Source: Styela clava (lineage: Eukaryota). From it: a DNA stretch of 64,000 bases. The notes beneath the pieces were generated by a model, which made no database searches, was not told where the DNA came from, and saw only the letters and a program-made list of their open reading frames with translations. Positions 6,201-50,734 of this stretch are shown piece after piece. The position numbers and the translations under genes were made by a program. The stretch is from contig NC_135256.1 of assembly GCF_964204865.1 (NCBI RefSeq), forward strand, positions 12,834,001 through 12,898,000, given 5' to 3'. Positions within the stretch are counted from its first letter, which is position 1. Every line of letters begins with the position of its first letter.

Positions 6201-6238
6201 GTATTTTGTGTTGCAGTATCAACATTTGAGTGACAAGT

Positions 6239-17117: not shown

Positions 17118-17168
17118 AAACAGTTACCACTGCACCGTTGGAAATCATAGAGACTACGACAGATATAA
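17118..17168 (+). CDS. Gene B coding exon 3 (51-nt phase 1-1 microexon)
   Basis: TCTGCAG acceptor and A|GTGAGA donor. Reads ETVTTAPLEIIETTTDI. Positional equivalent of the 57-nt microexon of gene A. Confidence 0.65.
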
Positions 17169-20600: not shown

Positions 20601-23600
20601 CTGGAATTCTTGATGCTCAATCTGATGACCACAACATAGTGATAGACTCTGAAACACTAGATATAACTCTTACAAACGACGATGTCACTTTAACACCTAT
20701 CTCGCATGATACATTGTATAATGATACTGGATTAGTTGAACCTAATGTTTCCGAGATATCAGAAGGAACAAATGACGACATGGTAATATCAACTGAAATC
20801 ATTGATAAAGCGACATCAATAATAACAGACGCAATGTCCAAAGCTATGGAGAGTTTTCTCGATGCTGATCGAAATGCCGGTGTTCATAAGGATTCAGGGG
20901 ACATAGCACCATCCGATGGAAGCTATCAAGTCGTTACAATGTCGCTAAATAATGAAAATACCAACACACTGGACATTGCAAACAGTGAAGAAATTGGTAG
21001 GCCAGGTAATGACTTCAAATCTACGAATGAAAGCAGTGATCTCGAGGTTGTAGGTGGGGACATTCCAAGCTCTATACCTTTCGAAATACCGGAAGATATT
21101 TCTGATCTCAAAGAAATAGACATATTGACTAAGTCTGAAAACACAAATGAGGTACAAAAGTATACTGATCATTTTACTCTTGATGACGAAACTGGGAAAC
21201 AACGTGATGGTTCTATGACTGAGAACATTTACAGTCCGAGTCATAGACAAATTGAATTGATACAACAACTCGGGGCTGAGTTGGTTGAAACAGTAACGGA
21301 AGCTATCGAAGCACTTTCTGCTGAAGAATCTTCAGACGAACTTGCAGACGACAAACCAACTGATAAAACTCTAAGCACTGCAACAGATAAGTTTGTCAAT
21401 GAAAGAAAAGAATCACAATCTCCACCAAAAAGCAAAGAAATATACATGGAAAAAATACCTATTGCCAGAGAATCCGAATCTGCAAATGATTTGGACGTTG
21501 AAAACAAAAGAAATGATATATCCTATATTGAAGATGAGAATCAATCTGTATCTGAAAATTCCAAACCATTAGATGAGACAATTGACGATGAAGCAGAAAC
21601 AAGTGCAATGCCTATCTCTACAGCTGTCGTGTTAGATGATATTGCAGCAAAAATAGTATTAGAAGCGATTATGGAATCACCCCCTATTGGAACTATTCCT
21701 GATACGACCGATTCAACAGAATATTCCAATGAAGGGAATACATCTGAAACCCAAGAATTACATGATGTTCAAGCCGATGATCAAACTGTAAGTCATGTTT
21801 CGAAAGAAACAATACCTTCCAGCATATATGAAGATACCAAGCCAAACAAAGACAATTCTGACATTCCAGTCACTATGTTATCATCCTCCGAAGACGTGTA
21901 TCCATTATCTTCAGTTAACACACAAGAAACTACTGAAGACTATCATAAACCTAAATCCGGAGATAGCGTTACTATGAAAGAAAAAAAGTCAGTAAAGAAA
22001 ATAAAGAGTATAAAGATAAAGAAGTCAGGTCAAAGTATTAAAAGAAGTAAGATCTCCACAGATGCAGACATACAAACAACAACTAGTTCCGAAGACTTGT
22101 CTAATACTGAAAGAAAGTCAAGAGCATCGACGAAAAGAAAAGTTATAAAGAAAAAAACTGACGTTGCCGGTAAAATTAGCAAAGTGAAATCAAACGAAAA
22201 TAAAGAAGGACATGATATTGAAGCTGTGCAAAATCTTGAAGAAATTCAAGAGTCTATCGGTGAAAGTCAGCCGGCAGAAAGTTCAAACAGTGCGTCAGTT
22301 GATGCGCTAGGAGAGTCTCATATGGAGGAAAAACCGAATGATGTTGAAAAACAATCTTTGAATCTGGCTGGTGATATTGATCCAGATATACAAAACTCAG
22401 CCAGAGCACTTGAAAGTGATGAAATGCTTTCATTGGGGGATATATTGTTAGAACTGAGAATAAACAGTCTCTCTGATAAAACAAGAACTGTGTCTGATCC
22501 GATACGTATATGTGATTCTCCAGAATTGCGAAATAAAGTAACTCAAGCGGAAACTTCTGTTTTAGGTACAATGGCTGAAGATGATGGTTCCGCACACGTC
22601 GCCCCTGAAACAGGCATAAATACGGAAATGGGTGAAAGAAAAGAGACAGATGGCATGCTTGCCTTTTCTGGTGAAACTTATGATCTTCAACAAGAAACAA
22701 TCGAAGATACGGCTGCGGAATTGCAATCAAACACATTGCATGACGCTACGTCTGAGAAAGATTCAGATGAAATATCTGCGAGTAAATCCATCGAATCAGA
22801 CGAAGTTACTTTCATATCCGACACCGAAGGTTCACTTCCAGTGTTGCAAAAGACAGAAACTAAAAAGGAAGAAGATATAAATAAGCACGACATCGATAAT
22901 GAGTTTGTCGCACAAGATGCCGAAAATGTCGAAAGAAACGAGACGGAACATGAAATGTTTCACATGCAATCAATACCCGAGGAACCTGATAGCCAGGATG
23001 AAAATGCTGCTGCGTCAATACCTCAAGATTTACAATACAGTGAACACCCCGTGCTTGCTCCGATTAAAGAGGAAGAGGCCGACGAAATATATAAGTCAGA
23101 ATATAGTGACGCATCGAGTTCCATAACGGAGATCACAAAAGATACAATTTTATCTGTGACCTCAGTGAATTTAGAAAACGAACCCTCATCCCATATAGAC
23201 TCAGCAGACAGAGATACTTTGCACTCTGCAATTAATATGAGGGAATTAATTGATGATGAGGATGACAAACTTTCACTTTTTGACATCCTGGCAGAACTTA
23301 ACTATGAAGCAAATCCAATGACTGGGGACTTGCAAGATACAGAAAATCCAATTTTTTTGTCACAAACTGAGGAAAAGAGTGGTGAAAGGAAAGTTTGGTA
23401 TTCGGAAGAGAAATCTACTCATTTGTCCGCGGAAGAAAAGGATACGACCTCTGTCGTGTCTGAATACGACAATGACATTACCAGTCAAAAATTACATATC
23501 GCCGAACAAGAAGAAATAAAGTTTGCACCTCAAGATGTAAACGTCAATACAACACACGATGGATCAGACGACATAATAAAATCACCTCTAAGTACAATGT

Positions 23601-26600
23601 GCGAAGGCGAAATAGATGGAACGTCGCAAAGGCTGGAAGAAGATATACCATTGGTCGAAAAGGTAGATGACTTCACTGGTAATGTAACAGACATTAGTCA
23701 ATCCATTCACAAAGACACCAGGGGTGTCGAAGAAAATACCGCATACCAAGAAAGCATGGGTTTTGATTACGATGCTGTCTTATCAGCTGAGTTAAATACC
23801 CAAGCTAATGATGGTGAGATTTCAAATTTAGCTGCTACGAAGAATCTCGATAGTACCAATGCAAATATGGAACAAAATACCGACTTTGAGAAAACTGAAC
23901 CGATTATTTCCGCTGGTTATCAACAAGAATTGGTAAAGGGAGTGGAAACCAATTTAAAAATGGGAACTGTCAGCCTTGAAAATGAAACTGCAAACTTAAC
24001 TCATACAGAAACATATGGCAGTAATGGTGCAGAAAAAAATTTTGTTAAAGATTTTAAAAACTCAGACGAAAATATCTCTATTAACGAGGAAGTCGAGGAA
24101 ACAGTCGTTGAGAGTAGCTTTACTCCAGTTGGAATTGATATCAACGAAACACACGAAAATGCAGACACGCTTTCGACGGACTATTCGAGTAGCGATCGAA
24201 AGCATGGCGAAAGGGTAGAAATTGATACTACACTTCCTGAGGTGTTGCCAATAGAACACGAACATGAGGACGACGTACACGCTCAAGATAGCTCAAATGA
24301 AGAAGGTATATATGGCAATGAAACCATAAATAATGAAAACAAAAATAATGATGGGCTAAAGGCAGCTAGCACTGAAAATGTAAATCAAGACCTCGCACTA
24401 TCTGTTGAAGAGGCAGTTGAGAATATTACTGGCCATGCTGAGGAAGATTCAAGCAAAAATCACGTGCACGTCAAAAATGTTGATATTGATACAACATTTT
24501 CTGAAGAATCGTCATTAAAAGACAGAGATTTACAAGCATATCTTAGCTCCAAGGAAGAACATGCAAGTGGCGAGCAAGAACCTAATGTTGTCATAATCAT
24601 GAAAACTGAAATGCTACTTGATAGCACTAAAGAACCCAATTTAGAAAAAGGTAATGTGGATTTGGAAAAAGAGAATGGAAGCCTAGAACGTGTTGATCTG
24701 GATAAAAATTCCAATGTCAATGCCAACCAAAATCTTCACGAAGACATTCAGATTTCCACAGAAAATATAATACCTCTCAAAATAACGAAGGAAACAAAAG
24801 ACGAAGATGATTTCACCAAACTGTCAGTGATTAACCAATCAACAAGTGAAAACATTGTCACTCAATCAATGCTATATTCAAGTAACGATCAAAATGACCG
24901 TGAACATAGAGATGTTGATACAGCGGATTCAAGTAATGAGCAAATACAAGTCGAACATATAGAAATTGAAGCAAATGTTTCCCAGGAGTTGCCAATAGAG
25001 CTGCAACATGATACTGGTATGCAAACACAATTTGGCTCCAATGAAGACCGCATAAGTGCCGGGGAAGAAACTGTTGTTGCCCAAAATATTAAAACGGAGA
25101 CAACCACTGATACTACAAAATCTGAACGGAAGAGTAAAAAAGTTGTTAAGAAAATTAAAAAACCGTCAGAAGATAACAAAAAGTCGGAATCGTCAATTAA
25201 AAAAGTCTCTGTTCGACGTAAAGTTGTTAAGAAGCCCAACGTTGCAATTAAACTGACAGATGCTGATCAAGGAGTAACTGAAATTGATGTTCCGGGTGAT
25301 GTTCCAAATCAACAAGAGTTGGCAAACGTGACAGAACCTGATTTGGCGAAAAAACCTGTTGATATGGACAACGAGATTGAAAACAAAACACATGTTGAGC
25401 TAGAAACATATAATACCGAGCAAGAAAAATCTTTGTCTGATGAAGTCATTAAAGACAAAGAGTTGATAAAAGATGGAGAAGCTGATTTGGAGATGAGTTC
25501 TGTTGACCTGAACAATGTGACTGATAACAAAACGCACGATCAGCTGCAAACATATCGCACTGATGATGTTAATCAAAATCTAGGCCAAGACTTTAATATT
25601 TCAGAGGAGTCTGCCGCGCCTCAGGATGTAAAGGATGAAGCAAAATTTGACGACAATTCTACCATAACCACAGTTGTTAACGACGAATCAAATGGAACCG
25701 TTACCGCATATTCGTTAGGTGAATCAAGTAATGACCTAATGCAAGTTGAACAAGACAAAACTGATACAAAAGTTTTCGAAGAGTTGCCGATAAATTCGCA
25801 AGATGATACGGACTTGCAAGCACAATTTGGCTCCAATGAAGATAGCATAAGCGCCGGGGAAGAAACTGCTGTTGCCCAAAATATTGAAACTGAGACAACC
25901 ATTGATACCACAAAATCTGAACGAAAAAGTAAAAAAGTTGTTAAGAAAATTAAAAAACCGTCAGAAGATAACAAAAATTCAGAATCACCAATTAAAAAAG
26001 TCTCTGTTCGAAGTAAGGTTGTTAAGAAACCAAACGTTGCAAATAAACTGACAGAAGAGAAGGTTGACAAAACTTATAATGAAAAAGATGCTGATCACGA
26101 AGAAACTGAAATTGTTGTTCCGGATGATGTTCCAAATCAACAAGAGTTGGCAAACGTGACAGAACCCGATTTGATGATAAAACCTGTTGATATGAACAAC
26201 GAGATTGAGAACAGAACACATGCTGAGCTAGAAACATATAATACTGAGAATACCATCCAAGAAAAACCTTTGTCCGATGAAATCATAAAAGACAAAGAGT
26301 TGATGAAAGATGCAGAAGCTGATTTGAAGATGAGTTCTGTTGACCTGAACAATGTGACTGATAACAAAACGCACGATCAGCTACAAACATATCGCACTGA
26401 TGATGTTAATCAAAATCTTGGCCAAGACTTCAATATTTTAGAGGAGTCTGCCGCGCCTCAGGATGTAAAGGATGAAACAAAATTTGACGACAATTCTACC
26501 ATAACCACAGTTGTTAACGACGAATCACATGAAAACGTTACCACATATTCGTTAGGTGAATCAAGTAATGACCTAATGCAAGTTGAACAAGACAAAGCTG

Positions 26601-29600
26601 ATACAAAAGTTTCCGAAGAGTTGCCGATAAATCCGCAAGATGATACAGACTTGCAAGCACAATTTGGCTCCAATGAAGATCGCATAAGCGCCGGGGAAGA
26701 TACTGCTGCTGCCCAAAATATTGAAAATGAGACAACCATTGATACCACAAAATCTGAACGGAAAAGTAAAAAAGTTGTTAAGAAAATTAAAAAACCGTCA
26801 GAAGATAACAAAAAGTTGGAATCATCAATTAAAAAAGTCTCTGTTCGACGTAAGGTTGTTAAGAAACCAAACGTTGCAAATAAAATGACAGAAGACAATG
26901 TTGATAAAACTTATAATGAAAAAGATGCTGATCAAGAAGAAACTGAAATTGTTGTTCCGGATGATGTTCCAAATCAACAAGAGTTGGCAAACGTGACAGA
27001 ACCCGATTTGGCAATTAAACTTGTTGATATGGATAACGAGATTGAGAACAAAACACATGTTGAGCTAGAAACATTTAATACTGACAATACAGACCAAGAA
27101 AAACCCTTGCTCGGTGAAGTCACAAAAGACAAAGAGTTGATAAAAGATGCAGAAGCTGATTTGAAGATGAGTTCTGTTGATCTGAACAATGTGACCGATA
27201 ACAAAGCGAACGATCAGCTACAAACATATCGCACTGATGATTTTAATCAAAATGTTGGCCAAGACTTCAATATCTCAGAGGAGTCTGCCGCGCCTCAGGA
27301 TGAAAAGGATGAAACAAAAATTCACGACAATTCTACCGTAGCCACGGTTGTTAACGACGAATCAAATGAAAACGTTACCGCCTATTCGATAGGTGAATCA
27401 AGTAATGAGCAAATGCAAGTTGAACCCATAGAAGTTGATGCAAAAGTTTCCGATGAGTTGCCGAAAGAACCGCAAGATAATACCGACTTGCAAGCACAAT
27501 TTGGCTCCGATGAAGATTGCATAAGCGCCGGGGAAGAGACTGCTACTGCCCAAAATATTAAAACTGAGACAACCATTGATACCACAAAATCTAAACGGAA
27601 AAGTAAAAAAGTTGTTAAGAAAATTAAAAAACCGTCAGAAGAAAACAAAAAGTTGGACTCACCAATCAAAAAAGTCTCTGTTCGACGTAAGGTTGTTAAG
27701 AAACCAAACGTTGCAAATAAACTGACAGAAGACGAGATTGACAAAACTTATAATGAAAAAGATGCTGATCAAAAAGAAACTGAAATTGTTGTTCCGGATG
27801 ATGTTCCAAATCAGCAAGAGTTGACAAACGTGACAGAACCCGATTTGGCGATAAAACCTGTTGATATGGACAACGAGATTGAAAACAAAACACATGTTGA
27901 GCTAGAAACATATAATACCGAGCAAGAAAAATCTTTGTCTGATGAAGTCATTAAAGACAAAGAGTTGATAAAAGATGAAGAAGCTGATTTGGAGATGAGT
28001 TCTGTTGACCTGAACAATGTGACTGATAACAAAACGCACGATCAGCTGCAAACATATCGCACTGATGATGTTAATCAAAATCTAGGCCAAGACCTTATTA
28101 TTTCAGAGGAGTCTGCCGCGCCTCAGGATGTAAAGGATGAAGCAAAATTTGACGACAATTCTACGATAACCACAGTTGTTAACGACGAATCAAATGGAAC
28201 CGTTACCGCATCTTCGTTAGGTGAATCAAGTAATGACCTAATGCAAGTTGAACAAGACAAAACTGATACAAAAGTTTTCGAAGAGTTGCCGATAAATTCG
28301 CAAGATGATACGGACTTGCAAGCACAATTTGGCTCCAATGAAGATAGCATAAGCGCCGGGGAAGAAACTGCTGTTGCCCAAAATATTGAAACTGAGACAA
28401 CCATTGATACCACAAAATCTGAACGAAAAAGTAAAAAAGTTGTTAAGAAAATTAAAAAACCGTCAGAAGATAACAAAAAGTCAGAATCCCCAATTAAAAA
28501 AGTCTCTGTTCGACGTAAGGTTGTTAAGAAACCAAACGTTGCAAATAAACTGACAGAAGAGAAGGTTGACAAAACTTATAATGAAAAAGATGCTGATCAC
28601 GAAGAAACTGAAATTGTTGTTCCGGATGATGTTCCAAATCAACAAGAAGTGGCAAACGTGACAGAACCCGATTTGATGATAAAACCTGTTGATATGGACA
28701 ACGAGATTGAGAACAGAACACATGCTGAGCTAGAAACATATAATACTGAGAATACCATTCAAGAAAAACCTTTGTCCGATGAAATCATAAAAGACAAAGA
28801 GTTGATGAAAGATGCAGAAGCTGATTTGAAGATGAGTTCTGTTGACCTGAACAATGTGACTGATAACAAAACGCACGATCAGCTACGCACATATCGCACT
28901 GATGATGTTAATCAAAATCTTGGCCAAGACTTCAATATTTTAGAGGAGTCTGCCGCGCCTCAGGATGTAAAGGATGAAACAAAATTTGACGACAATTCTA
29001 CCATAACCACAGTTGTTAACGACGAATCAAATGAAAACGTTACCACATATTCGTTAGGTGAATCAAGTAATGACCTAATGCAAGTTGAACAAGACAAAGC
29101 TGATACAAAAGTTTTCGAAGAGTTGCCGATAAATCCGCAAGATGATACAGACTTGCAAGCACAATTTGGCTCCAATGAAGATCGCATAAGCGCCGGGGAA
29201 GATACTGCTGTTGCCCAAAATATTGAAAATGAGACAACCATTGATACCACAAAATCTGAACGGAAAAGTAAAAAAGTTGTTAAGAAAATTAAAAAACCGT
29301 CAGAAGATAACAAAAAGTTGGAATCATCGATTAAAAAAGTCTCTGTTCGACGTAAGGTTGTTAAGAAACCAAACGTTGCAAATAAAATGACAGAAGACAA
29401 TGTTGATAAAACTTATAATGAAAAAGATGCTGATCAAGAAGAAACTGAAATTGTTGTTCCGGATGATGTTCCAAATCAACAAGAGTTGGCAAACGTGACA
29501 GAACCCGATTTGGCAATTAAACTTGTTGATATGGATAACGAGATTGAGAACAAAACACATGTTGAGCTAGAAACATTTAATACTGACAATACAGACCAAG

Positions 29601-32600
29601 AAAAACCCTTGTCCGGTGAAGTCACAAAAGACAAAGAGTTGATAAAAGATGCAAAAGCTGATTTGAAGATGAGTTCTGTTCATCTGAACAATGCGACCGA
29701 TAACAAAGCGAACGATCAGCTACAAAGATATCGCACTGATGATTTTTATCAAAATGTTGGCCAAGTCTTCAATATCTCAGAGGAGTCTGCCGCGCCTCAG
29801 GATGAAACAAAAATTCACGACAGTTCTACCGTAGCCACGGTTGTTAACGACGAATCAAATGAAAACGTTACCGCCTATTCGATAGGTGAATCAAGTAATG
29901 AGCAAATGCAAGTTGAACCCATAGAAGTTGATGCAAAAGTTTCCGATGAGTTGCCGGAAGAACCGCAAGATAATACCGACTTGCAAGCACAATTTGGCTC
30001 CGATGAAGATTGCATAAGTGCCGGGGAAGAGACTGCTACTGCCCAAAATATTAAAACTGAGACAACCATTGATACCACAAAATCTAAACGGAAAAGTAAA
30101 AAAGTTGTTAAGAAAATTAAAAAACCGTCAGAAGAAAACAAAAAGTCGGACTCACCAATCAAAAAAGTCTCTGTTCGACGTAAGGTTGTTAAGAAACCAA
30201 ACGTTGCAAATAAACTGACAGAAGACGAGATTGACAAAACTTATAATGAAAAAGATGCTGATCAAAAAGAAACTGAAATTGTTGTTCCGGATGATGTTCC
30301 AAATCAGCAAGAGTTGACAAACGTGACAGAACCCGATTTGGCGATAAAACCTGTTGATATGGACAACGAGATTGAAAACAAAACACATGTTGAGCTAGAA
30401 ACATATAATACTGACAATACAGACCAAGAAAAACCCTTGTCCGATGAAGTCACAAAAGACAAAGAGGTGATAAAAGATGCAGAAGATGATTTGAAGATGA
30501 GTCCTGTTGATCTGAACAATGTGACTGATAACAAAGCGCACGATCAGCTACAAACATATCGCACTGGTGATCTTAATGAAAATCTTGGACAAGACTTCAA
30601 TATCTCAAAGGAGACTGGCGCGCCTCAGGATGTAAAGAATGAAACAAAAATTGACTACAATTCTCCCGTAACCACAGTTGTTAACGACGAATCAAATGAA
30701 AACCTCACCGCATATTCGATAGGAGAATCAATTAAGGACCGAATGCAAGTTGAACATATAGAAATTGATGCAAAAGTTTCCGAAGAGTTGCCGATAGAAC
30801 CGCAAGATGATACAAACTTGCAAGCACGATTTGGCTCCGATGAAGATCGCATAAGCGCCGGGGAAGAGACTGCTGTTGCCCAAAATATTAAAAATGAGAC
30901 AACCATTGATATCACAAAATCTGAACGGAAAAGTAAAAAAGTTGTTAAGAAAATTAAAAAACCATCAGAAGATAACAAAAATATGGACTCACCAGTTAAA
31001 AAGGTTTCTGTTCGACGTAAGGTTGTTAAAAAGCCCAACGTTGCAATTAAACTAGGTGAAGACGAGGTTGTTAAAAGTAATAAGAAACAAGGGGGCGATG
31101 GTGAGGAAGCCAAAAATATCATCTCCGATGAGGCTCAGAATCAACATAAGTTGATAAACGTTGCAGAAATCAATTTGGAAATGCAGTCTGTTGATACGGA
31201 CAACGAGATTGAAAACAAAACACACATTGAGCCAGAAACATATTACACTGACAATGTCATTTTGAATCTTAGCCAAGATTTACAAAACCCCCAAAAATAT
31301 GCCTTGCTTGGTGAAGTAATTGATGAACCAAAAACAAAAGATAGATTAACCGAAACTGCGGCCACGATGGTCGAAACAAGCGATAACGTCACCGCCCAGA
31401 TTATGGAAGTTACAAGTAGTAATCAAATGCATGTAGAAAATGACACAATAGGGTCTGGGGAGTTGGCGATAAAACTTCAAGACGATAAGGATGTGCTAAC
31501 TCAAGTTGTATCTGCCGAAGAACGTACAGGTGACGAGCAAGAGATTGCTGACGCCAATAATATTGAAAGTGAAGCAAACATTGATACTACAAAATCTGGA
31601 CGGAAGAGTAGAAAAGTTGTGAAGAAAATTAAAAAACCATTAGAAGGTGACAAAAAATCGGATTCACCCCATAAGAAGATTTCCGTTAGGCGTAAAGCAA
31701 CAAAGAAACAAGGCGATGAAGTGAAAATTGCAGAAGACGAAGTTGCTACGGGTAATGCGGAAAATCAAGATGACCAAGAAAACTCTGAAACTACTATTTC
31801 TGATAAAGTGCAAAATCACGAAGAGTTGAATAAAGATGCAGGAACCGGATTGAAGAACGCTTTTGTTGACGTGGATAATGCGACTGATAACAAAGCATTT
31901 GATCAGCTCCAAACATATCTTACTGGGGATGACAATCAAAATCTTGTCCAGGACTCTGATATCACAAAGAAGTATGCCGTGCCCCAGGATGCAACGGGTG
32001 GCACAGAAATTGACGATAATTCAACCATAACCATAGTTACAGCAAATGAAAATGTTATCGCATATTCGACAAATGATTCAAGTAACGACCAAATGCAAGT
32101 AGAACAAATAAAATTCGATGCAATAGTATCCGAGGAGTTCCCGATGGAACTCCAAGGCGATATGGATGTAAAAGCACAAATTGTCTCAACTGCTGAAGAC
32201 CGCGTAGGCGGCGTGCAAGAGACTGCTGTTACCGAAGGTATTAATAAAGAGACTACCATTGAAATCATAAAACCTGATCGGAAGAGTAAAAAAGTTGTAA
32301 AGAAAATTAAAAAGCCAATGAATAATGACAATAAGTCTGATAACCCACCGAAAAAAATTTCGATTAGGCGCAAGATTATTAAGAAGCCAAAAGACACAGA
32401 GGACCCTAGTGAAGATGTGTCTGACATAATAGGTACAGAACAACAAACTATTGATGAAACTGAAAAAATGGCCCACACTGACATTCAAACTCCACAACAT
32501 GAGTTGTTGAAAGTTTCAGAAGGCAATTTACAAATAGATGCATCAGATCTAACTACAGACAATGAAAATAAAATAGACATTGATCAACAAGAACATAAAA

Positions 32601-33397
32601 GAGATGATCAAAATAATCACGATGATTTCCCAATGTCACCAGAACACGTTTTGCCTGATGAAGTACCCGATGATAAAAACGTCGTGATGAATCGCACTCA
32701 AAATTTAGACAAAGAAGAACAAGAAACGAATCAATCCTCGAATTTAAAAGCCGATCTACCGGACGGTGAAGAAGATATTGTTGCCGCAAACGAATCACTT
32801 CCCGAAACACTCAATTTGGAAAGTACCGCGAACGAACTACAAGCTACTGATGTTCACATAAATTTGACAGAAAAATCAGACAATTTGGAACTTGATGGAA
32901 CAGATCTAGATCCGTTGGCGACTGCCCAACTGCACGACGCCCATAGCACCAAGAAAATTGTCAAAAAAACGAAAACACTTTCCACAGCCGGGGAGAGTTT
33001 AAAAAAACCATCCATCAGGCGAAAGGTCATCAAGAAGAAAGAAAAATCAAACAAAGAAGTTTCTCAAGATGGCGAAATTGAAACTAGCAAAGAAAACCCC
33101 AAAGGGTCATCCGGAAATAAGGAGGGAGAGTATCTTATGGAAGAAATTGATTCCGGAACTAAAGCGTCAGTGCCTGTTGCAACAAGCTGTAATTTAACTC
33201 TAGAAACTACTTCTTCTAATCTAACCATGACGGAAGATGGAGGGGACATTGCTGAAGCAAAGCCATCTAAAAAAAGCATAAAGGTATTGAAGAAATCGGT
33301 GAAAAAAGACCTGGACGAAAAGGATTCGAACAAAGACGATTCCCCAACACCAAAGAAAAGTTCCACTCGCCGAAAAGTCGTAAAGCGCACAAAATAA
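17604..33397 (+). CDS. Gene B giant terminal exon (about 15.8 kb): acidic, probably disordered region with tandem repeats (whole protein about 5370 aa)
   Basis: Uninterrupted 5266-codon ORF with no ATG at its start. Phase-1 acceptor AAG at 17601-17603 with branch-like CTAAC at 17578; an alternative phase-1 CAG lies at 17628-17630. Repeat-unit length differences are all multiples of 3. Confidence 0.9.
24920..32560 (+). repeat. Coding tandem array of about 10 units (675-837 bp) with a 2.5-kb higher-order duplication
   Basis: The KKVVKKIKKP anchor recurs at 25142, 25937, 26774, 27611, 28439, 29276, 30104, 30941, 31616 and 32294 (spacings 795, 837, 837, 828, 837, 828, 837, 675, 678). Units 2-4 match units 5-7 at offsets 2502, 2502 and 2493. 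Confidence 0.95.
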
Positions 33398-33401
33398 TAA
33401 A
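33396..33401 (+). terminator. AATAAA overlapping the stop codon of the giant exon
   Basis: Sequence AAA TAA TAA AAC; the hexamer shares bases with the stop codon at 33395-33397. Confidence 0.3.
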
Positions 33402-33736
33402 ACTATGCACGGGAGGTGGACTTTTCAACTATGAACAAAGAACATATGATCAATTCCTTTCTGATATTAGTATATATTTCAAGAGGAAATACAACAAATA
33501 GCGCTGCACCAAACTATGGGGTTCTTTGTTTAACTTTAGTATATCTCTGATGAATATGAAATGGAGTCCAATAAGAACATGTCATTCTTAGCTTATAATT
33601 TGATATGGCAATCTACATGCCTGCTAAAGGCATATTTTATTTGACGACTAAGCCTCATTCAAGTGCGCCTGAGAGTTTCCTGGTTCTTCGGAACACTTTT
33701 GTGACAGGACATTAACGTTGTCCAATCTTTTTTCAG

Positions 33737-36498
33737 ATATGGTGAGAGGTGTAGCCGGTTTAGCAACTGACACATCCACTTCTATAGTGGCGGGTGCCGT
33801 TGGTGGTGTGGCAACTGTGGTCACCGGTATTGCGGAGACGGGAACACTTGCTGGTACTGGTGGAGCTGAGATTTTGGTGACTGGCGTGATGCGCACAGAT
33901 ATTATGTCAGACGGAGTCGTTGTAGAGGAATCTGCATTAGAAGCAGACATCGCGACAGTCAACGTTGATCAAGCCAGCACAGAAAGTGAGAAATATATTG
34001 TTGTTAAGCCGGCGAAAAAACGAATAAAAAAGAGCGTTCAGAATACAATTCACCAGAAAGAAGTCATAACTCCACAAACACAAGTATTAAAGAAAAAAAT
34101 CATCGTTGAAGATAATCTTGCAGAAAGCAAACCTCAAGTAGATTTGGTTAAAAAAGAAATTGTGATTCAGAATTTCATTCCATGCGAACCCAAAGTCCAA
34201 ATATTGGCAGAAAAAGAAATTTTGATTCAAAGGCCTTCAACACAAAAGCCAGCAATAACTATAGAAAGTGTCGCTGTTCAGATTGATGAAAACCCGATTA
34301 CACAAGACGGATATGAATGTGCTGAAGAGATTCTAATCAGGCAGGATGTAGTTTCGATCTCTGATTCTCAATCGGGGTCATTCTCATCAGAAGATAATCA
34401 GAGTTGTGATTCTCAATATGAAGTTTTGATTCAAGATGAGATTCTCTCTCACGCTGTGGATGAAAAACAAATATCAGAACAAAACCCTTTGGCTTTTAAA
34501 GAAGCAACAATTCAGATTGATAAGCAGATTATTTGTGACAGCGAAGACGATGCAGAACATGAAGAAATTTTGGTTTATGAGCAATTTACTTCGAATTCTG
34601 AATGCCAATCAGAAGATTCTTCTATTGGTATCCAGGTTCAGGATAATAATGCCTTTCAGTCAACCACGGAATTAGTTTCGGAAACTCAAGAGCAGACTAT
34701 GCAAGCGGGTGAAATACGGAAAGCAGTACAAGATATTATGATAACGTCGAAGGAAGCCACTAATGCAGCTCAGATCGATGTTCAGGAAATTGATGTTAAT
34801 TTCAACTCCAGCTCAAAGAAGAAAACTGGCATTGCAGGGTCGGCAGTTGGTATTATTGGAAACGTTTTCTCGTCTGCCAAGAATATATCTGTAGGTAAAC
34901 ATGCTGCAAAGATTGTAAATGGCGCCAAGGAAACAGTTGTCGGATTGATTCCTAGTGTTACTCCGCATGACGTGATCATATCAGCTTTTGATAATGAAGC
35001 CATCGTAGAGGTTGACAACAGTAGTAGTGGAACTAATATTGTTGAAGTTGTAAGTAGCACTACAAGGCTGCCTACAAGACTTTTCGAAATCGCAAACATT
35101 GGAGGAATTGTTGAAGGTGGGTCAAATATTGTGAATGCTGCTGTGACCGGGCCTGTTGAAATTACCAGCGGCGTAGTCGACGTAGTTGGAGTTGGGGGTG
35201 TGATCGAAAGTGGAAGGAACGTCGTTGGGAGAATTACAGAAGGTGGATCAAATATTTTACATGCTGCTGTGACCGGACCTGTTGAAATTACAAGCGGAGT
35301 AGTCGACGTAGTTGGAATTGGGGGTGTGATCGAAAGTGGGGGAAACTTGGTTGAATTCGCAACGGACACTGTAGGCGTAACCGATGGCATTAATAGCGTT
35401 GTTGAAATGGCAAGTATTGAAAGAGTCGTCGGCACTGGAGGAGATATTGTGGATGTCGTTGTTGATACCATTAATATTTCGGGTGATGGCATTGAAAGAA
35501 CAGAAATAGTGGAAGAAGTGATTGTTGATAGGGATTCCGAGCCAATTCAAATGCAACAAAATCTTGTAGCTTCTGCTGCACATAGAAAAGTAATAAAGAA
35601 AGCGAAAAAGGCTGGACAATTTCCTCCAGAAGAGCAAAGAGACATTGTGATACAAGAAAATCCGAACACACAAATCGGACAAGTTGTGGATCTCATAAAG
35701 CTACAAGACCAGGTAACAGTTGGTAAACAAATCAGCTCAGATGGTAAAGCAGTAACTGAAACCAAACAAATTTCACGAGACGTGGAACCATTGATTGCAA
35801 AAAATACTGAGGTCGTTAAAATTATACAAAAAGCACCAATGAAAACACAAAACGTTAGCCAGGGTGAAAAGAGAAAGAAAATTGTAAAAGCGGTACAAAA
35901 GCAAGATGCTCTGGTAACAATAAAAGAAAAGGGCAGTAAGGAACCGAACGAAAAAACGACACAGGTGAAAGCGATGCCGGTTCAAAAACAGAGCGTAAAG
36001 CGTAAAGTAGTAAAGAAAATTACCAAGAAAGTCAATCCCACAAAAGTCGTTGAAACAGCTACACAGCAAGAGTCCAAGATTATTCCAAAAGTTGTTATTC
36101 CTCTGGTCGATCAAAAAGTTATACCCGGTTCGAAAATAGTCCAAGGTAAAGTTCTATCAACTAAGGTAGTTACATTTGATGAGGATTTCCAAAGGAAAAT
36201 GGATGATGCTGAAATGGATAGACTGGAACGAATCGCCCAATCACAAGAAGTAGGTCAGACTTCTAAAGAAGTACAGCAACCAGCGGATGGCATCAAGTTG
36301 ACCCAAGAATCTCTCGTGGAAGAACTTGTAAGTCACGACGTTCAAGATGTCGTTTCTCAGATGTGGGATATGCTAGACGACGACTCTAATCAACAAGGAG
36401 AACAAAATATAGCTCAGACACAAACTGCAAAAAAATTGACAAAAGTAGTCAAAGTTGCTAAAAGCTCCATACCACAGCAAGCTGTCCACGTGAAGTAA
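33737..36498 (+). CDS. 2.76-kb coding exon: probable alternative terminal exon of gene B (isoform about 1026 aa), or a separate single-exon gene from ATG 33739
   Basis: 926-codon ORF. Strong acceptor TCTTTTTTCAG (33734-33736) with TTAAC upstream, in phase 1 like the gene B donors. Shares the KKVVKK-type basic motif (KRKVVKKITKK, RKVIKKAKK) with both other tails. V/G/E/Q/K-rich, with no recognisable folded domain. Confidence 0.8.
35113..35358 (+). repeat. 126-bp (42-aa) coding tandem duplication
   Basis: EGGSNI..AAVTGPVEITSGVVDVVG.GGVIESG.N starts at 35113 and again at 35239. Confidence 0.9.
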
Positions 36499-39400
36499 CT
36501 TCCTAACGTGTATCATATTCATAATGCTCCATGGTCAATACCAAATTATCTCATTTCACACAAATACATTATTAAAATATTTTATTTTAAAAGCATAATT
36601 TCAATGTTATTTCTACTTTAAATATTTGAACTGTTTGTCATGTTGTTAGAGAACGAACATATCGTTAAAATATTATTTAAACATCTACATTACTGATATT
36701 ATATTTCTACTTTTACATTTGACCAATAGTAGCTTTGATATTAGAAACCCGTGTTTCATAGCAAATACTCCAGCGAAATACTTTATAGTCTTCAAATAGC
36801 TTCATATTTACCTGTATCAGGCTTTTCTTTATAATTGCGATCTTCGAGCTTCCACAGGTGATTCACGTAACACTGTTGTACTAAAATGTCTACCAAGAAC
36901 GATGAATTAACACCAAAACGAAATGGTTCGCTGTATATTCTCATTTATCTTCTTGCAGAAATGGCAGTTCTTACCCATACCATTGCGTCTAAATATATAA
37001 CTTTAACCAAGTTTCAATACACAAGTATCTGTTTGGATAAAATTCCATCACGAATAAGTTAATTCACTTTTGAATAACAAAATTCTTAAATATTTAAAAA
37101 TTATTATACTTTTTGCATAACTAGGTTTTTTAATTAGCAATCGAGAATTAACTATAATGTAGATTTGAAAACTTCACGATATATCGTAGTGGTCATAAAA
37201 TATTCAATCATTCATGAAGTATCGGATGTGTTAAAATGTAAAATTCACGTTTTGTGTTTCTCCAAGCTCTCCACTGTTTAAAATTGTATATAGTCCTAAA
37301 TTTTAACATAATTCGCTATTTAATATATGTAACCGCTATTCGTTACAACTTATATCATTTCACACACAGTGTACTTGTTTTACTGTTATATGATAATTAT
37401 ATTCCTAATATCAATATCGGTTATAAATGTGTATACCCACTTGGTCGTATTAAAAGGTTATACGTTGTGATTTTTAGAGACTGGTTCAAGTTTCTTAAAT
37501 AAGGCATTGGGCTATCAGGCTCCTCTTATAGTTATAAAAAGGTTAATAACACCTTTCAGTGGATAGCCTACCGTCTGGAATTACTGGCGGCTGGACATGA
37601 AGTGAATATCTGAAATAATTTGCGTCCCTGCTTTTGCAACTCTGTTTTACGAGCAAAAGATATATATTTGATATTGTGCCTAGTGTAATCAGCCACTTTT
37701 TCTAACACACGGCAAAAAATTGTCAAGGGACTAATAATAAATATCCGACTATGTTTTATTCCCAACTAAATCAAAAGCGCAGGCAGACGCTCCAAGTCAA
37801 ATGTTAGGGACAACAACGTGATTTAGGGTCCAGGCACTGCCCTAATACATATATATTTCATCCCATCCATCGACAGATTAAATATAATGGGTGAGCTATG
37901 CAGAACCGTATAAATTCCAGTTTTCCTCAACCCAGCAGCTCCTAATTCCTATGCGTAGATTGACTTCTGCTTGCTGTTTGGGGAAAAAAAATCTATTAGC
38001 ATGTTCGCCCCAGGTACTTCACAACTTTTTCTGGTCATGTGATTTAAATTTGTTATGTGAATGAATGCTTACAATTTGAAAACGCTGGGTCGAAACATAC
38101 ATTTGGATGTAATCGATCCTTTTCTGTATTGATAACCATTTTATATTATTTTTATGTTTCTGTATTTCCCATGCTTCAATCTCAGATGTTGATCATCAAG
38201 TTTGTGATTTGTAGATTATCGGACTGTAAATTTACTGTTACTATTGCTTAATTATCGAAATGTGCCCATTTTTGTAAATAAAATATAATATATAACACAG
38301 TTTCAATGAAGAAATGTTAGGAATCCATCTAATACGATATTTTGGAGAAAGAAGACGTGTAGGAACGCCGCGGTCATCATATTTTTATATAAAACCTTTG
38401 ACAATTTGAGTTTTTAAACGAAAATTATTCGGCATCAAATGCGTTTGATGTTTAGTCTATTTTATCAATAAATAATATATGTAGCATCTAAAGTTTGTTT
38501 GAGAGATTTGTTTCAGGCCTGGGTAACTTACCTAAAACGCAATAACGAAGTCCTTTCAAACGGGAAGGAAAGCCCTATTGCCCTCACACAATACTTTTCA
38601 GAAAGAGCCGGTTCTTTTTCAAAAACAAACATAGCATGTAAACTATAGTGTATTTTAGAACTCACAATCTCAAAAGATTTGACTAAGCAGAAATGTATTA
38701 GTAAAATCTTCATAACACCTTTGCATTGCACTCCATGTGTTTGACACAAACTCTATCAGTCAATATTTTTCTGCTGTGCTGTTTGTGAAACTTTTGTAAT
38801 ATGCTGAATTGAAAATATTCCGAGCAAAAGCGTTCAAAAAAGGGCCCAGAAATCACATAGTAATCCCAGTCTCATCTGTTAATAGGCTATTCAATTCGCC
38901 TTAAAATTATGCTCTGAAGTATGTGAATAGGACTGTTTAACCTGTCTTCATAGATGGCAACCTATTTGACATAATTATGTTTTTTTTTTAATGCGAGTTA
39001 TCTTCAGTCGTTTGTCAGACAGAATGTGATTATCCCAAAATTAGATTTGGCGTAGCCAATGTCGTGGTCGAGCATATTTTTATCTATGAGTCGGGTGTCA
39101 AAAAGCCTGGCGTAAAGTGTAGAAAGCGTGGCTTGACCGCTGTATATTTCTCATATGTTTCATCTGAAATGAATGGTCGTCTATAGACCTATAGCTATAG
39201 CATTGTTCACGATCATATCATTAGTCCAGATCTCAGTAGATTTTGCACAATGTTTTAACGCATGAATATGTGAAGGGCATAGGACAGTTGTATTTTTCGT
39301 CTCCTCGCGATGATTCCTATGAAGGGACGCATCCTGCTACACGTAAAGGAACTGCTGAATCGAGACAATGAAACCGAATCCTAATGTATATGTGATCTTT

Positions 39401-42400
39401 GCCCGTAATCTTTCTGAATTTATCAAAATCAATCCGTTTTAGCATCACTAACCGTTTTGTGTCAAACAATAAATTTGGAGATTATTCAGCTATCGGATAA
39501 ATCAAACCTATTTTAAATGGTACACTCCCGAAACTAATGTCAGAACATGTCATTTTAATCTAATAAGAACAAAAATTAAAAAAATATCCTAGATGGATTC
39601 ATTCGTAAGGTATTGTACTACACCTTCTAAATCCAAGATAAGTAAACTAATCAAATTTTCGTTACAGTCGGTTTTAATATCAGGTCACACTTATGGATAT
39701 TAAGCGGAAGTTCATCGAACGACTGCAACAGACGAAGTCATCCGCCAGCATTATACTGTATACCAGGAGTGTCCAACCTGCTTTCGACTGATTTTTGTCA
39801 TACACAAAAACGATTTAGTATACTGAATATGCAGATAACTGTATACACGCATACAAAAAATTACATTTGGCTCTGTGAGCGCAATCGCCACCAAAATTTA
39901 TATATTTTATGTTTCATTCAATTTGATTATGTAATTGTACCAGGGTCAAATTCTCATCATTTATTAGTTGTAAATTTCTCAAAAAATCTTGCGAAGTATC
40001 CATATTATCTAAACAGCGAAAAATAAATATTCTCAAATCATAAATGTTACATGACTGCTCAAAGTTTAATATCTAATTTATAATTTCCTTCAAACCCGAT
40101 TCTTCGCTCGCTTGGAATTAGAAAAATTGGTCATGTTGGGTGCCAATGTCTTCCTGGGAATACAATTTATCACACTACTCTTGGGGTTAGGAATAACTTT
40201 AGCATACTGCAAAGTTTTTGTTGGTTCGTTTCCCAGTCAAGACACACGATATGCGGCACGTTCATATTAGAATCTTGACAATGACGTTTGTTACGTAATA
40301 ATATTCGCTATCGGGCTTGCCCAGACTCAAATATTGTGTAAATCGTATTTTGCGCATGTACAGTACTGTATTCGTTCTGTTTCAAAACACACAACAGGCG
40401 CTGCATGAAACTGGAACTCGAGACGTGGCGATCGACGTGTCGGCTGTAAAAAGTATCCACGCTCGGACTGATATGAATGATACTGTTTTTTATAAACCTT
40501 TGAGTAATCCTGTAACATTTCTCTTCAGCCCCGAATACTTTATATCTGAGTATTGTTCGGAAACATAAAGAATCCATTTACCAAATCAACAAAAACAATA
40601 ACAGTGTAACCAATGAAGTATGGGAAAGATCAAAAACAAAGGTTCACTTAGTCTGGGAATGAAAGCTCTTTAGAATTATAAATAATTGTTTCGGGAGCGT
40701 TCGATTGTTATCATTTTGATGTGGTAATGGGCAATTTGGTGTTTGCGTTACCGAAATACGATACATATTAACAAATTCATTGTAAAAAGTTCAGAATAAT
40801 GTATTGATTTCAAATCAATACTTTTCTGCTCACCAAAAATAAGAACGGACAAAAGATGTTGCCTAAATAATCAACTTAATCATTTGCTCTCTTCACTACT
40901 TAATGTGTAATTGTCGTGTCTGGGTTTGTGTAGTTTTTAAAAAACCCAACAGCCTAATTTGAATGCGGGCTTCAGCCAAATTAAACAAAACGGCCTAAGG
41001 ATTCGTAGAAGGCTATATTAAGTTTACTATTTACGTTCACTATTGGTAATTTTAATTAATAGTTACCAAATAGTTGAAACAACTTAAAATATCATCAAAA
41101 AGGCGGAATTTAGATATAAAATAAATTAGTATATTTCAACGTTAAATAAGAGCTATGACGGCTAATCAGACCAGGTTGATCGTTTTGTTATTTTGCTGTT
41201 GTTAATGGTCATGTTAGTATTTTTATTGTGAAAAAACAGCTTTTCTCATTAACTATTGAACCAATTGCTTTAAAATTTTACAGTGGTTAAGAATTGCATA
41301 TATTTGAGCATTGCTCTCTTGTTTTATACACGAAAGTTAATCCTTATACGAAAAAGCCATTTCGGTGTGAAATTTAGATATATATAACATTACTGTTTTC
41401 ATAGAAAGGATCAATAAACTTTTAGGCAAATGATCGAAAGGGTCCATCTTACTGAAAAGGCCGAGAACAAACTGCTGGGTTAGACAGAGCAACACTTGGC
41501 CCGCGAGCACGAAAACGCCAATAGCTTGTTGAGTGGCAGTATCTATCGACTTGATAAATTGTTTTAGTTACAAGTCACCAAGTTTGAGATTTTCTACACC
41601 AGGATACTAGAAATGTACTTTAATGCAAAAACCTGCTACCGTTTGGATCTAGAGGCCATTCAGTGAAACATATCGCTATGGCTAGCTACTTCATTTCATA
41701 TGATTGCGATGATTTTGTGGTGTCACACATCACAATCGCGGTGGACTGAATGTCAGCTTTAATTAAGCGCCGACAAACCGCATAACCTAGCCCTAGATAG
41801 ACCCCTAGATAATTAACTGAGCCAAAAGGTTATTATTTGATTGGTAAATGTGCATTTCGCTTTATTCGTATCACCCCCAATGGTGATTGGTGGGCACTCG
41901 GCGTTCTTTCACATGCTCTCAATAACATTGCAAGCAAAGAAACAAACCACCAATACCTATTGCGTTATGAAATTTAGTACCCACCATACTATATGTTAAA
42001 AACAACACTTTGAAATAGTATTTTAGAGCCACCCTCACGTAACAATTTAGATATATATAAAAAAAATCGCTTCAGCGGCTTGATGTTGTTTGTATTTGTC
42101 CGAGACCACGAATTCCGCACTATATTTTTATTGGTAGGTTAGTTATGTGCTGCCCTTGTGCTCTCAACAAATAGAGCCTGATCGACCGTCTTATCCATAT
42201 CACTAATCTCTTATCGCTTGTTTGAATTCCTCGCGAGAACTTTGATGCTTCGCTAATACTTCGCGCGACGGAACCGTCAACATCAACCAGTAAAGTTCTA
42301 CGGTCGCTTTGCCGGGTGTGGATTGCGCTTTGGATATCATTATGACATAACAATTAATTATTGAGATTGTATTAGTTTAGAGGCGAAGTCGCTACAGCGG

Positions 42401-43180: not shown

Positions 43181-43343
43181 ATGGCGTTTACATGGGAGAC
43201 GGTGGTACAAATCATCATCCTTGTATTAGCACTCCGGGCTCTACATATGGTTTCGGCGAACAATTCGTGCTCTGAAGTCCGCAGAAACTTTGTTTCAAAG
43301 CGGATAGGTCCGGTGAAAATTGTCCCATTCACCGCTTTTGAAG
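43181..43343 (+). CDS. GPC5: Glypican-3/5 family, coding exon 1 (signal peptide plus first Cys)
   Basis: Reads MAFTWETVVQIIILVLALRALHMVSANNSCSEVRRNFVSKRIGPVKIVPFTAFE: a hydrophobic signal peptide followed by the glypican xCxEVRxxF...GxxxxVP motif. Phase-1 donor G|GTGGGT. Likely co-orthologous to vertebrate GPC3 and GPC5. Confidence 0.88.
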
Positions 43344-46300
43344 GTGGGTAGACGATTTTAGTTTCATTTTCTGGCAAAATAATTGAACTTTCACAAGTTG
43401 TTAATTGGTATTTTGTATTTATTATTAATAATATCAAGTACCAAGAAAATTTTCATCTCTCTGTTGCAACTTCATATAGTACTCTAAACGCGTACAAAAT
43501 CAGCTATACAATGGATCGACGGATTTCCCAAATCGGTTCGAAATAGAAGGAGTAATTGTTAAAACATAAATTTATATTATATATATGCGACTGATATCTT
43601 GGCATGAGCGTGCATCAGAATTTTTGTTTATCATATGTGTTTCTGGTATTTAATTAATATAGGTTACTTCACGTTATAAAATATACAATAGGCAAAGACG
43701 ATGAACAATAGCGGATATATATGCTACGTGTATCAGATCCACTAAGATTCAAACGTAACTACTCAAAGGTGAAACAATTTGATAAATCCAACAATATTAC
43801 TCTTTTATTCTATACGTAGGGGGAAACATGACAAATGCTCACTACTCTGAAATTGTGATCGAAATTATTATTCCTTACGCGTTAGACACGCAGACCCTAC
43901 GTAGGTTTCGTGACTAAACTATACGTGAATTGTTATTTCTATATTATAAAAATAAATCTGCGATAACGAGCGCGTATATAAAGTGTAATAAAATATATTT
44001 GTGGATTAGCTTTGCTGTAAAAGAAATGTAATTTACTGTATTTTTACTTTGTCAGTATGGCTTGAAAAAAAAATGTTGATAATATTGTGTAGGCAGAATT
44101 GCTATATTTTCCTTACTTTGTGGCGAGAGGTATTCAGTATTGTATTACTTTTTATTGTGTTGCAAAGCAATGAAAAACCGCTCCAACACGATAAGATCTC
44201 AGATATTCACACCCTGAAAATAGCTTGATCGTTTTTCATATAACGTCGTTAATTTTAGGGTGGAATGTCTGAAGGTGGCAATTATTGGGCAGTCGAAATA
44301 AACACTTCTTAAGAAAATTGCGCGGTCGAGTTTTTTGCACAAATGTGCGAAATGTACACACATCTTTATAATATTATTAAAACCATTGCCTCCAGCAAGA
44401 TATAAAATGCAGAGTTATTCTAGCAATTACCTAAAATGCGTCACGACCAACGCAGATATAAAATGATTCAAATTTCACAGTCAAACGGGTATAATTTGCC
44501 TGATGAAACGAAATGTCATAAAGTTGTTGGGTAGTTTCAGTTGGTCCCATTGAACAGTGGCATGAAAAAACAATTGAAGCAAGTGATACTAAATTTTAAT
44601 CATCATAATCTTATAATTTCATATATAAGAAAATTGAAGCGGCATTGCAAAATATAGCAAAATCGTTGTCCATGCGGGATATGTTTTCGCATTTGTTCCC
44701 CTTTCCTACGTGTCGTATATTACATACAGAAGTCTGAGAGGAAGCTTAAGATAAGATCCTTATCAATATTTTACTTTCATCTTTGGTGACGAGTTACTAA
44801 CGCAACCGCAATTGTAATTTCATTATAACTGACCAAAATCATCTTTTAATATTTTTCGCGTTTTGTTGCCAGAGGCGTTCCGTTGTCGTGATACATTGGA
44901 TTTCATAGCATAAATGTTTTGATCAGTTACCATGTTCTGTAATTTACTATGTGACCTACCTGCTTGGGACATTTGGAAGGGTTCGTGGTAACTTATTTTT
45001 AATTTTATTCTAATTAGTTCGTGTTTTTGAAAATGGATTCGATTCGATACCAAATATAATATATATAGATGTTTAATGCGCTTGAAAGTTTCATGATCAC
45101 CCAGTTTAGTCTTCTGTTATAAAGACATCCCTCTCAACTATGTTCGAAACTGGTTTTGTGTTTATTGTGCCTGTGTATGTACTTACAATCATATATATGC
45201 ATAAAAACTGTCAAATGTTCGTTCCATTTCTATCTTTTAAGCGCCCAGTGTCATAAGCTAACACATCCAAGACGGTGGCAGATCATTTCAGGCCGGATTA
45301 TTATAAGTCTTTTGATTTTTTCAAAGACTTGTTTATATGTAATCCCCTCAAAGAAAAGTTGCACACTAGAAAATCCTGTAGAATCAAAATTATAATACAA
45401 TTATAAATGATTTCGTTTTCAATCGCAGAGGACGCATGATTTACAAGAACTTGGGTCATAACGGAAAATGTTTAAATATGTTTACATTCGGAACCAATAA
45501 AAAAACGTATGGTCGACTATCCGTGGATATGTTTTGTTATACCATTAATAAGTTCAAAACATGCCCCAATCATTACGCCTAGTTTTTATTTCATTTTTAT
45601 TATTAATTATACTTATTTTTGACTTGATGCTTTATCATACTTCATCAGGGACATTTTTTCATCATCATATAGTTTCGTAATAGCACGAGATCGATATACG
45701 CAAGGCGGCTTCATTACTTGTGTCTTGCAGTCGCATTCCGAATTGCAGATATAGAATAATCCAAGTAGCTAGGAAATATATAGCACCTTGAGCGGGATAA
45801 ATTTATCGAACACATCCTGGGACAACTATTAATCGCTTCGTTTTGCATCATAATTCGTGTATGTATGCAATTATTAATAGAGAAAAATACTTTCTGTCTT
45901 CTACTCGTCCGATCTTTAATGGTGCTTAACACGGCCAAATGAAATAATGATTTACAATATTTTCCCTATAAGTAGAGCGTACCTTGAACTAATCTCGTTT
46001 ACCATCTTCTGTCCTATTTTGGGGACGAGTGTTTTGCTTTAAAAAAGCACTGAGCGCACATTGATTTCGCGCCTAAATAAGATCTGTTGATAATGTTTGT
46101 GTCGCAAGTATGGCCATGCTTCATATGAGGCTGAGAAAATTCGAATGCTTGATAAGAATCTCTTCTGATTTGAATCCCGTATTGTCATACTTTGGCGAGT
46201 ATTCATCTTGATATCAAGGTCCTTAAGAAATCTTCACAATTTGGATATTTATGTTCAATAATCACCGACGACGAGAGGTAGCGATGACCACCATAGCCGT

Positions 46301-49300: not shown

Positions 49301-50734
49301 CTGAGGTATATAAATTCTACCAAATAGTCACCTGTCAAAGCGTAATAATTTTAATAAATAAATAAAATATAAAAATCACGAATGTGCATAAATTAAAGTC
49401 GGTAAAATGGAAAATCTTGAAGGAAGCTGTTGTTGTGCCCATCTAATTTTGACATTCTGAATTTTGAAAGTACCTTTTAAATCGGCCATACGACAAATTA
49501 CCGTAAAGTGCTTAGGGACCTATTTCATACAATCAGTATTAAAACATCGAAATTAATTTTCGATTTTTTTCTCACAAGCCGTTACATGCATTTCATAACG
49601 TTTAGAGGTTAGATGTGTGGACATTCAAAAATCCCGTCCATTTTAATAAATTCTACTTCCACATCCATATTCCGCCAATATTAATTTTCAATTTCCCCGC
49701 ATAAATTCCTGGCATTAATTTTGTTAAATCAAAACTCACCAGCTTAATCCAATTTACATTTGTACTTATTGGGATTTAGGGACATTCAGTAGATTAGTAC
49801 TCTGCTAATCTCAAGTCGAAATAGGGTAAATACTTTTTCTGTATTCAATTATACCAGATAACCGTTCTTTTGAAAACCGCTAATGGAATTTGAGCAGCAT
49901 CGGCAACATTTTTAGTTTTTTTGTTTTGTTTACGATTAACAAATGTCTACAACATACAATTGTAACCCTACGTAATTAATACCCATAAAAATAACGGTTA
50001 ACCCGATCTGGGATAAATTTTAACGGAACCGTCTTTGTAATAGCAGTATCCGTTTATATGTGAGTGTAATCGTTCTTGGTCAAAATGGTATTCCCAAGTA
50101 CATATTGGTAAAATGCGGTTTCAAAAAAAGCTCTATGGAAAACCGATGACTCTTGGAACAACAATAACTTAAATCGGACATTTATAATCTTTTAGTGATT
50201 TTTCCACCCAGCCTAGGGTATAAAATTAAGTCGGATATGCCGAACCGATAAAATTTCGACCAATCGAATCTTCGCTTTTAAACTCACTTCTTGGTTTTAC
50301 TCCATTGTTGACCTCACAAAGGGTGTCAAGTATTTCAAAGCCGAAATGTTTTTGTCGAGCGTAGACTTTGAAAACAAATTAATATTTTTGACAGAAGTAT
50401 GCAAGGAGGTATTTATCAGCATTAACTAAATACCGCCTAATAAAACAGCATCAATCGAAGGTAGAATGCTGCACGGGTGGTCTTGCATTATCATGCAATA
50501 TTTGGCTGTGTTTATTTTTAATAAAATAAAAAAGTTATGATTTTCTACAGTATTGCTTAATGTACGTGATTGTATCACATCCATACATTAGCTAGCCAAT
50601 GTATTTTGTTGATTTACTATTATTTTCTGCAACTACCCATACTATTGTCATATTCGATGTTTCCGAATTTTGAATGTTTATTCGTAGTTATTTGTATTCA
50701 TATTTAAATGAAAGTGTTGACTTTATTTTAACAG

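Follow-up and report, generated by a model that had tools for sequence, protein, structure and literature searches.

Three large frames lie on the plus strand of the 64,000-nucleotide stretch of Styela clava DNA analyzed here (the window), at 8954-10864, 17582-33397, and 33673-36498. The second is the giant coding exon of LOC120327732 (100% match), the upstream gene, which we call gene B. The third begins shortly behind it. We asked whether this third open reading frame (ORF) is an interchangeable tail for the upstream gene, a gene in its own right, or part of a 3' untranslated region (UTR). The features of the locus are collected in Table 1.

TABLE 1 Features of the locus, in window positions
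Feature	Position	Strand	Remarks
Gene A, SHD head paralogous to that of gene B	exons 6217-6345, 7888-8042, 8674-8730	+	predicted from sequence
Gene A, tail exon	8985-10864	+	whole gene 6217-10864, predicted 732 aa; splicing predicted from the DNA letters only
Gene B, first coding exon, SHD1 helix, ATG 14828	14823-14940	+	RefSeq proteins map there
Gene B, exon 2, phase-1 donor	16154-16308	+	
Gene B, exon 3, phase-1 donor	17118-17168	+	
Giant coding exon, 5,264 codons	17604-33397	+	acceptors 17603 (isoform X1) and 17630 (isoform X2), weak
Double stop TAA TAA with overlapping AATAAA (33396-33401)	33395-33401	+	hexamer at chance level, use not evident
Noncoding spacer, 339 nt	33398-33736	+	unspliced in RNA-like contigs; likely 3' UTR of gene B
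TTAAC branch-point-like motif, pyrimidine tract, CAG acceptor	33712-33736	+	putative site of trans-splicing (or, rarely, of cis-splicing)
Third ORF, 919 aa, single exon, single copy	33739-36498	+	
Internal 126-nt repeat of third ORF, two copies in frame	35099-35350	+	dN/dS 0.33
3' UTR behind third ORF	36499-38290	+	end follows AATAAA 38277-38282

The genes upstream of the third ORF

LOC120327732 has two database isoforms, X1 (5,370 aa) and X2 (5,361 aa). Both use the giant exon, to which three head exons are spliced at the acceptor 17603 in X1 and 17630 in X2. These two acceptors, AAG and CAG, have almost no pyrimidine tract (17575-17630), and the first is preceded, at a distance of about 20 nt, by TTCTAAC, which resembles a branch point. 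Between 24837 and 32391 the giant exon carries about 10 in-frame repeats of 675 to 837 nt. An older RefSeq protein has 5,008 aa, compared with 5,361 to 5,370, and this suggests a difference in repeat copy number between haplotypes or assemblies.

Exon 1 alone of genes B and A matched Pfam PF02318 (FYVE_2) with E values of 0.003 and 0.016, both falling short of the cut-off. When exon 1 of gene B was compared with the PDB, the best matches were the SHD (Slp homology) helices of Slp2 and melanophilin, all of them weak (Slp2 chains, E 0.02). Exon 2 of gene A had no relevant match. We found no C2 exon near genes A and B: none of the 92 C2 matches in the genome fell in or near the window, and none of the 74 downstream frames matched. 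The first coding exons of both genes start at acceptors (6217 and 14823) that precede the ATG by 22 and 5 nt and could reflect either trans-splicing or introns in the 5' UTR.

Elsewhere in the genome, two PF02318 matches lie 2.4 kb apart at C1:20.94 Mb, each in a 1,039-codon open frame, and are possibly duplicated intronless SHD genes. The SHD locus on C16 is multi-exon, with no giant exon within 50 kb. Upstream, the window contains the last exon of MCM7 at 1603-1816 (winged helix, E 6e-16), with more MCM-like exons farther upstream. The next gene downstream is a glypican at 43182-61886 (Pfam match at 50674-50928, E 7e-9), in which we recognized by eye a signal-peptide-like exon near 43182-43344 and a likely further exon near 61709-61886.

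The third ORF is long, single copy, and an orphan

The stop-to-stop frame of the third ORF spans 941 codons, a length with a chance expectation of about 1e-29. Its first ATG, at 33739, has G at both -3 and +4 and opens the 919 codons that make up the third large exon noted some 340 nt behind the giant exon in a preliminary description of this DNA. Residues 14 to 32 form a hydrophobic Gly/Val/Ala segment, which might anchor the protein in place of a Rab-binding head. Judged by its composition, the protein is probably largely disordered; a single-sequence fold was unusable (mean pLDDT 31).

Four basic KKVVKK-like motifs are present in the third ORF. This motif is common to all three tails of the locus (4, 23, and 4 copies, compared with shuffle maxima of 2 to 3), and the third contains more Val, Ile, and Gly than the other two. 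Alignment-level homology between the third ORF and the other tails was not found (best E 0.11). Since the tails share the motif but lack alignable homology, the idea that the third ORF began as a duplicated terminal exon is a guess, suggested by the motif.

The third ORF is present as a single copy in the genome. No relatives were found among 7,987 candidates of 505 to 1,609 aa or among 1.84 billion representatives, and searches of Pfam, an exact look-up, the Atlas, and metagenome contigs were blank as well. No protein containing it occurs in the collection that holds isoforms X1 and X2, an absence to be expected if, as we infer, the annotation pipeline took the third ORF for UTR.

A strong acceptor lies directly before the start codon

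The spacer between the giant exon and the third ORF is closed in all three frames, and its 10 ATGs each open only 5 to 39 codons. A tblastn search with four head exons returned no matches inside the spacer at E values up to 20, and a separate SHD exon search was blank. The earlier statement that no SHD exons lie between 33397 and 33737 is thus borne out, and degenerate SHD exons in the spacer can be discarded as an explanation.

The spacer ends in the acceptor at 33736, ccaatcttttttcag followed by ATATGG, which an ad hoc score placed ninth among the 3,432 AGs of the plus strand. It scored higher than the nine other acceptors scored (6.5, compared with 2.0 at 17603), and a branch-point-like TTAAC (33712-33716) precedes it. 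The ATG of the third ORF comes 2 nt past this acceptor. As a control, we considered 479 ATGs between 38.4 and 64 kb and found only one that lay within 10 nt after an equally strong acceptor. Whereas the first Met is codon 2 after the acceptor in the third ORF (Met, 1.4%), it is residue 145 or 257 in the comparable tail exons. Phase 1 is shared by the donors at 8730, 16308, and 17168, and joining them to 33737 stays in frame, giving proteins of 1,026, 1,009, and 1,026 aa. A strong phase-1 acceptor that matches the donors at 16308 and 17168 and has an ATG 2 nt on had been described beforehand, and our scoring and in-frame joins agree with that description.

An AATAAA overlapping the giant-exon stop had also been pointed out, and it is present. 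However, the hexamer occurs 18 times within the giant coding exon and 3 times within the third ORF. Because it is so frequent inside coding exons, its occurrence at the stop is at chance level and gives no support for its being a poly(A) signal. No AATAAA lies within 40 nt of the acceptor at 33736, the nearest being at 33396 and 34023. The spacer also contains a TATA-like TATATAT at 33472, a weak signal in AT-rich DNA.

RNA-like contigs run across the boundary

To follow cover across the boundary we had contigs from 15 runs, none of them recorded as RNA, and used four, one per study, over 32,500-40,500. That these runs are RNA is our guess, backed by the cover ending after the AATAAA at 38277. 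A contig is a path and not a molecule: rare branches are dropped, and starts, short leader branches, and poly(A) are not displayed, the contigs carrying no poly(A) even at their 38,290 end. Assemblers usually trim away leader tips that are short.

In all four runs the end of the giant exon, the spacer, and sequence of the third ORF were joined on a single unspliced contig (33158-37910, 32501-35169, 32501-35066, and 32500-36488), with at least 579 letters on each side of 33736/33737. The same was true of all three runs that remained when the study possibly behind the assembly was set aside. Among the joints and loose ends listed for the four runs, none was at 33737. The binned depth over 33,301-34,902 equaled that of one bridging contig in every run, and bridging held even in the run with a depth of 7.8. 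Depths to the left and right of the boundary were 15 and 28.7, 7.8 and 12.7, 52.7 and 66.7, and about 43 to 55 and 53, values that a step or 3' bias would fit equally.

Cover ended at 38279, 38284, and 38288 in three of the four runs, just past the AATAAA at 38277, and the last piece listed for the fourth ended at 38225. It was zero over 38,641-39,708 in all four, as RNA would give. One run had a low-depth contig (6.3) at 38286-38485 that stopped just past another AATAAA (38467), where a minor distal poly(A) site may lie. Farther on, over a dispersed repeat at 39700-40500, all four runs had large numbers of contigs and loose ends.

Because the contigs show no branch and the cover is unbroken, an abundant splice from a head exon to 33737 is unlikely, as is a main 3' end near 33420. 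The preliminary description had proposed terminal exons that exclude each other, which would call for a poly(A) site near 33420 behind the giant exon. The contigs give no support to such separate poly(A) ends: all four runs cross 33398-33736 unspliced and without a break, they keep no branch at 33737, and cover lasts until about 38,290. Nor does any database isoform join a head to the third ORF. There may be a minor poly(A) end near 33420, or a rare 3' splice to 33737 in transcripts that also finish at 38,290.

Cis-splicing and a separate promoter as possible explanations

Such a 3' splice, in minority transcripts or in tissues outside those sampled, would carry an SHD head past the weak acceptor of the giant exon to 33737 and make a short-tailed Rab effector of 1,009 to 1,026 aa with the same poly(A) site. 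We consider this unlikely, even though the three phase-1 donors with their in-frame joins, the higher score of the distal acceptor than of that at 17603, and the basic motif common to the three tails all suit it, and contigs lose rare variants. Against it are the lack of any break, joint, or extra record at 33737 among those listed for the four runs, and the presence of X1 and X2 in a protein collection where no protein includes the third ORF. In addition, an ATG at codon 2 would be superfluous in a cis-spliced tail.

The third ORF might instead be driven by a promoter of its own, located within the spacer or in the last part of the giant exon, with or without a leader, its link to gene B then being read-through. 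The family offers a precedent in the fuhc sec and tm genes of Botryllus, for which this kind of reading is favored (PMC3691228), Ciona outrons of about 460 nt are similar in size to the spacer (PMC3074122 and PMC11155486), and the TATATAT at 33472 could serve, weak as it is. However, reads linking the fuhc genes are far rarer than exon reads, whereas here all four runs bridge the gap, even at the lowest depth, and the contigs show no 3' end after the giant stop. We therefore judge a separate promoter improbable.

The third ORF shows signs of selection

The codon-position bias of the third ORF resembles that of the other tails. The copies of its internal 126-nt repeat differ at 10 synonymous and 8 nonsynonymous sites (dN/dS 0.33, P 0.017). 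In one haplotype, 28 substitutions in the third ORF appear among the 40 listed of 209; of these 28, 13 are synonymous and 15 nonsynonymous, with no stop (pN/pS 0.41, P 0.017). Eleven of the 28 fall within the 126-nt repeat, and the remainder (6 synonymous and 11 nonsynonymous) give a pN/pS of 0.64, which is not significant (P 0.26) and is near the 0.61 at the end of the giant exon. The sole indel in the third ORF is an insertion of 12 nt, in frame, while five of the seven events listed for the 1.8-kb UTR are not multiples of three. At the UTR rate, the chance of no frameshift in the third ORF is 0.0004, or 0.02 from one run alone.

The run with listed differences had 1 substitution in 33204-34559 (1,356 nt, covering the spacer and the start of the third ORF) compared with 28 in the next 1.1 kb; this may reflect either constraint or a shared haplotype block.

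Taken together, the repeat, the in-frame indel, the polymorphism, and the codon bias favor a translated gene under moderate constraint. They also bear on the idea that the third ORF is never released as an mRNA of its own, being either an untranslated 3' UTR relic or reached by internal initiation on a two-ORF mRNA. Unbroken cover and the absent protein record would suit a plain UTR, and polymorphism outside the repeat is near neutral. However, 919 open codons with a coding-like bias, no stop among the 28 listed differences, an indel only in frame, a constrained repeat, and a strong acceptor kept at the ATG make this very unlikely.

A proposed downstream cistron opened by a spliced leader

If the third ORF is translated, it must have a 5' end of its own, since a double stop and 10 ATGs precede it, and those 10 ATGs make reinitiation unlikely. 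The ATG 2 nt past a strong acceptor is rare by chance and would not be needed by a cis-spliced tail, which points to trans-splicing. We therefore lean, with a confidence that is evenly balanced, toward the reading that the third ORF is a downstream cistron, spliced-leader trans-splicing at 33736 giving it its 5' end while much of the RNA is left unresolved. This possibility had been raised in the preliminary description, and it fits best with the ascidian host, the boundary-crossing contigs, and the position of the ATG, the leader itself being a candidate only.

According to this reading, transcription would start at the gene B promoter and run to 38,290. A portion of the RNA would be trans-spliced at 33736, yielding a 4.6-kb mRNA that is capped by the leader and encodes a protein without a head, probably disordered. 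The gene B mRNA would then end at the acceptor, as has been proposed for Ciona. Much of the RNA would stay unresolved and serve as gene B mRNA with a 4.9-kb tail. Less securely than these steps, the third ORF may derive from a duplicated terminal exon, which would explain both the phase-1 acceptor and the shared basic motif.

Some observations sit less well with a downstream cistron of this kind. Bridging even at a depth of 7.8 makes boundary-crossing RNA seem common, which counts against a textbook operon. The phase-1 match, expected one time in three by chance, fits cis-splicing better than a leader. Patterns of spliced-leader RNA genes derived from Ciona occurred in this genome at or below control counts (11 compared with 11, 0, and 105 compared with 326).

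The acceptor at 33736 might also have a dual use, with cis-splicing from a head exchanging the 5.3k-aa for the 0.9k-aa tail and leader trans-splicing making a headless protein. We think this quite unlikely, but if true, a duplicated terminal exon would have been caught becoming an operon gene, its old cis acceptor reused for trans-splicing. An acceptor serving both in cis and in trans would allow a direct test of how trans-splicing makes a new gene out of a duplicated exon, and of whether, as has been proposed, each transcript yields either the upstream or the downstream mRNA but not both.

Two further candidates were rejected. Stop read-through or frameshifting into the third ORF is ruled out by the double stop and a spacer closed in all frames. 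A small intron linking the last part of the giant exon to 33737 finds no support, as the contigs have no skip over 32.5-33.7 kb and no donor exceeds the score cut after 31,646.

We conclude that the third ORF is a real, apparently unannotated gene, most likely of the operon kind known from ascidians. At a minimum, it is a 919-aa orphan gene absent from the protein collections searched and placed where pipelines would see a 3' UTR, a position that is a known blind spot for ascidian operons. If the operon reading is true, operon-type expression extends to Styela clava.

Comparison with known systems

Genes A and B resemble the vertebrate Slac2/exophilin-type effectors of Rab27 and Slp2-a in having a candidate N-terminal SHD helix without a zinc finger and no nearby C2 exon. 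A very large, low-complexity terminal exon, as in genes A and B, also belongs to the EXPH5 layout. Unlike in Slac2/exophilin genes, the heads here come as a tandem pair, the 5.3k-aa tail carries 837-nt repeats, and a third ORF has no head at all; that the products of the locus bind Rab is a prediction.

Our literature search on trans-splicing or operons in Styela found nothing on this locus, and the closest systems are in other ascidians. Operons contain about 20% of Ciona genes, which annotation pipelines tend to model wrongly (Satou 2008, PMC2760879). According to Satou 2006 (PMC1488885), the upstream mRNA of a Ciona operon stops exactly at the G of the downstream acceptor, leaving no intercistronic DNA; 16 of 18 operons lack an AATAAA within 40 nt of the boundary; and it is proposed that the upstream and downstream products of one transcript may be mutually exclusive. 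The Styela locus is like these spliced-leader operons in its same-strand ORFs with continuous RNA-like cover, the acceptor AG at the downstream 5' end, the lack of an AATAAA within 40 nt, a single-exon member, and its difficulty for annotation pipelines. However, single-exon operon genes in Ciona are mostly the 5'-most (PMC1488885 and PMC2760879), whereas here the single-exon member is downstream. RNA crossing the boundary also seems common here, each contig's depth being one flat figure, whereas it is rare in Ciona: operon 41 is reported with 2 dicistronic cDNAs against hundreds of monocistronic ones. Finally, the downstream gene here is an orphan that shares a motif and an intron phase with the upstream tail exon.

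A comparison within the family is offered by Botryllus, a relative of Styela in which trans-splicing has been reported (PMC3691228). As described by Nydam 2013 (PMC3691228), fuhc sec and tm of Botryllus schlosseri are two genes 227 bp apart with linked RNA and rare cross-gene splices, and a leader was not found. Both cases are styelid, with a short gap (227 bp and 339 nt), linked RNA, and the same doubt as to whether there is one gene or two. In that account, exon 1 of fuhc tm lacks both a canonical acceptor and a leader, and RNA linking the two genes is rare, whereas the third ORF of Styela has a strong acceptor at its ATG and a gap that is bridged in all four runs.
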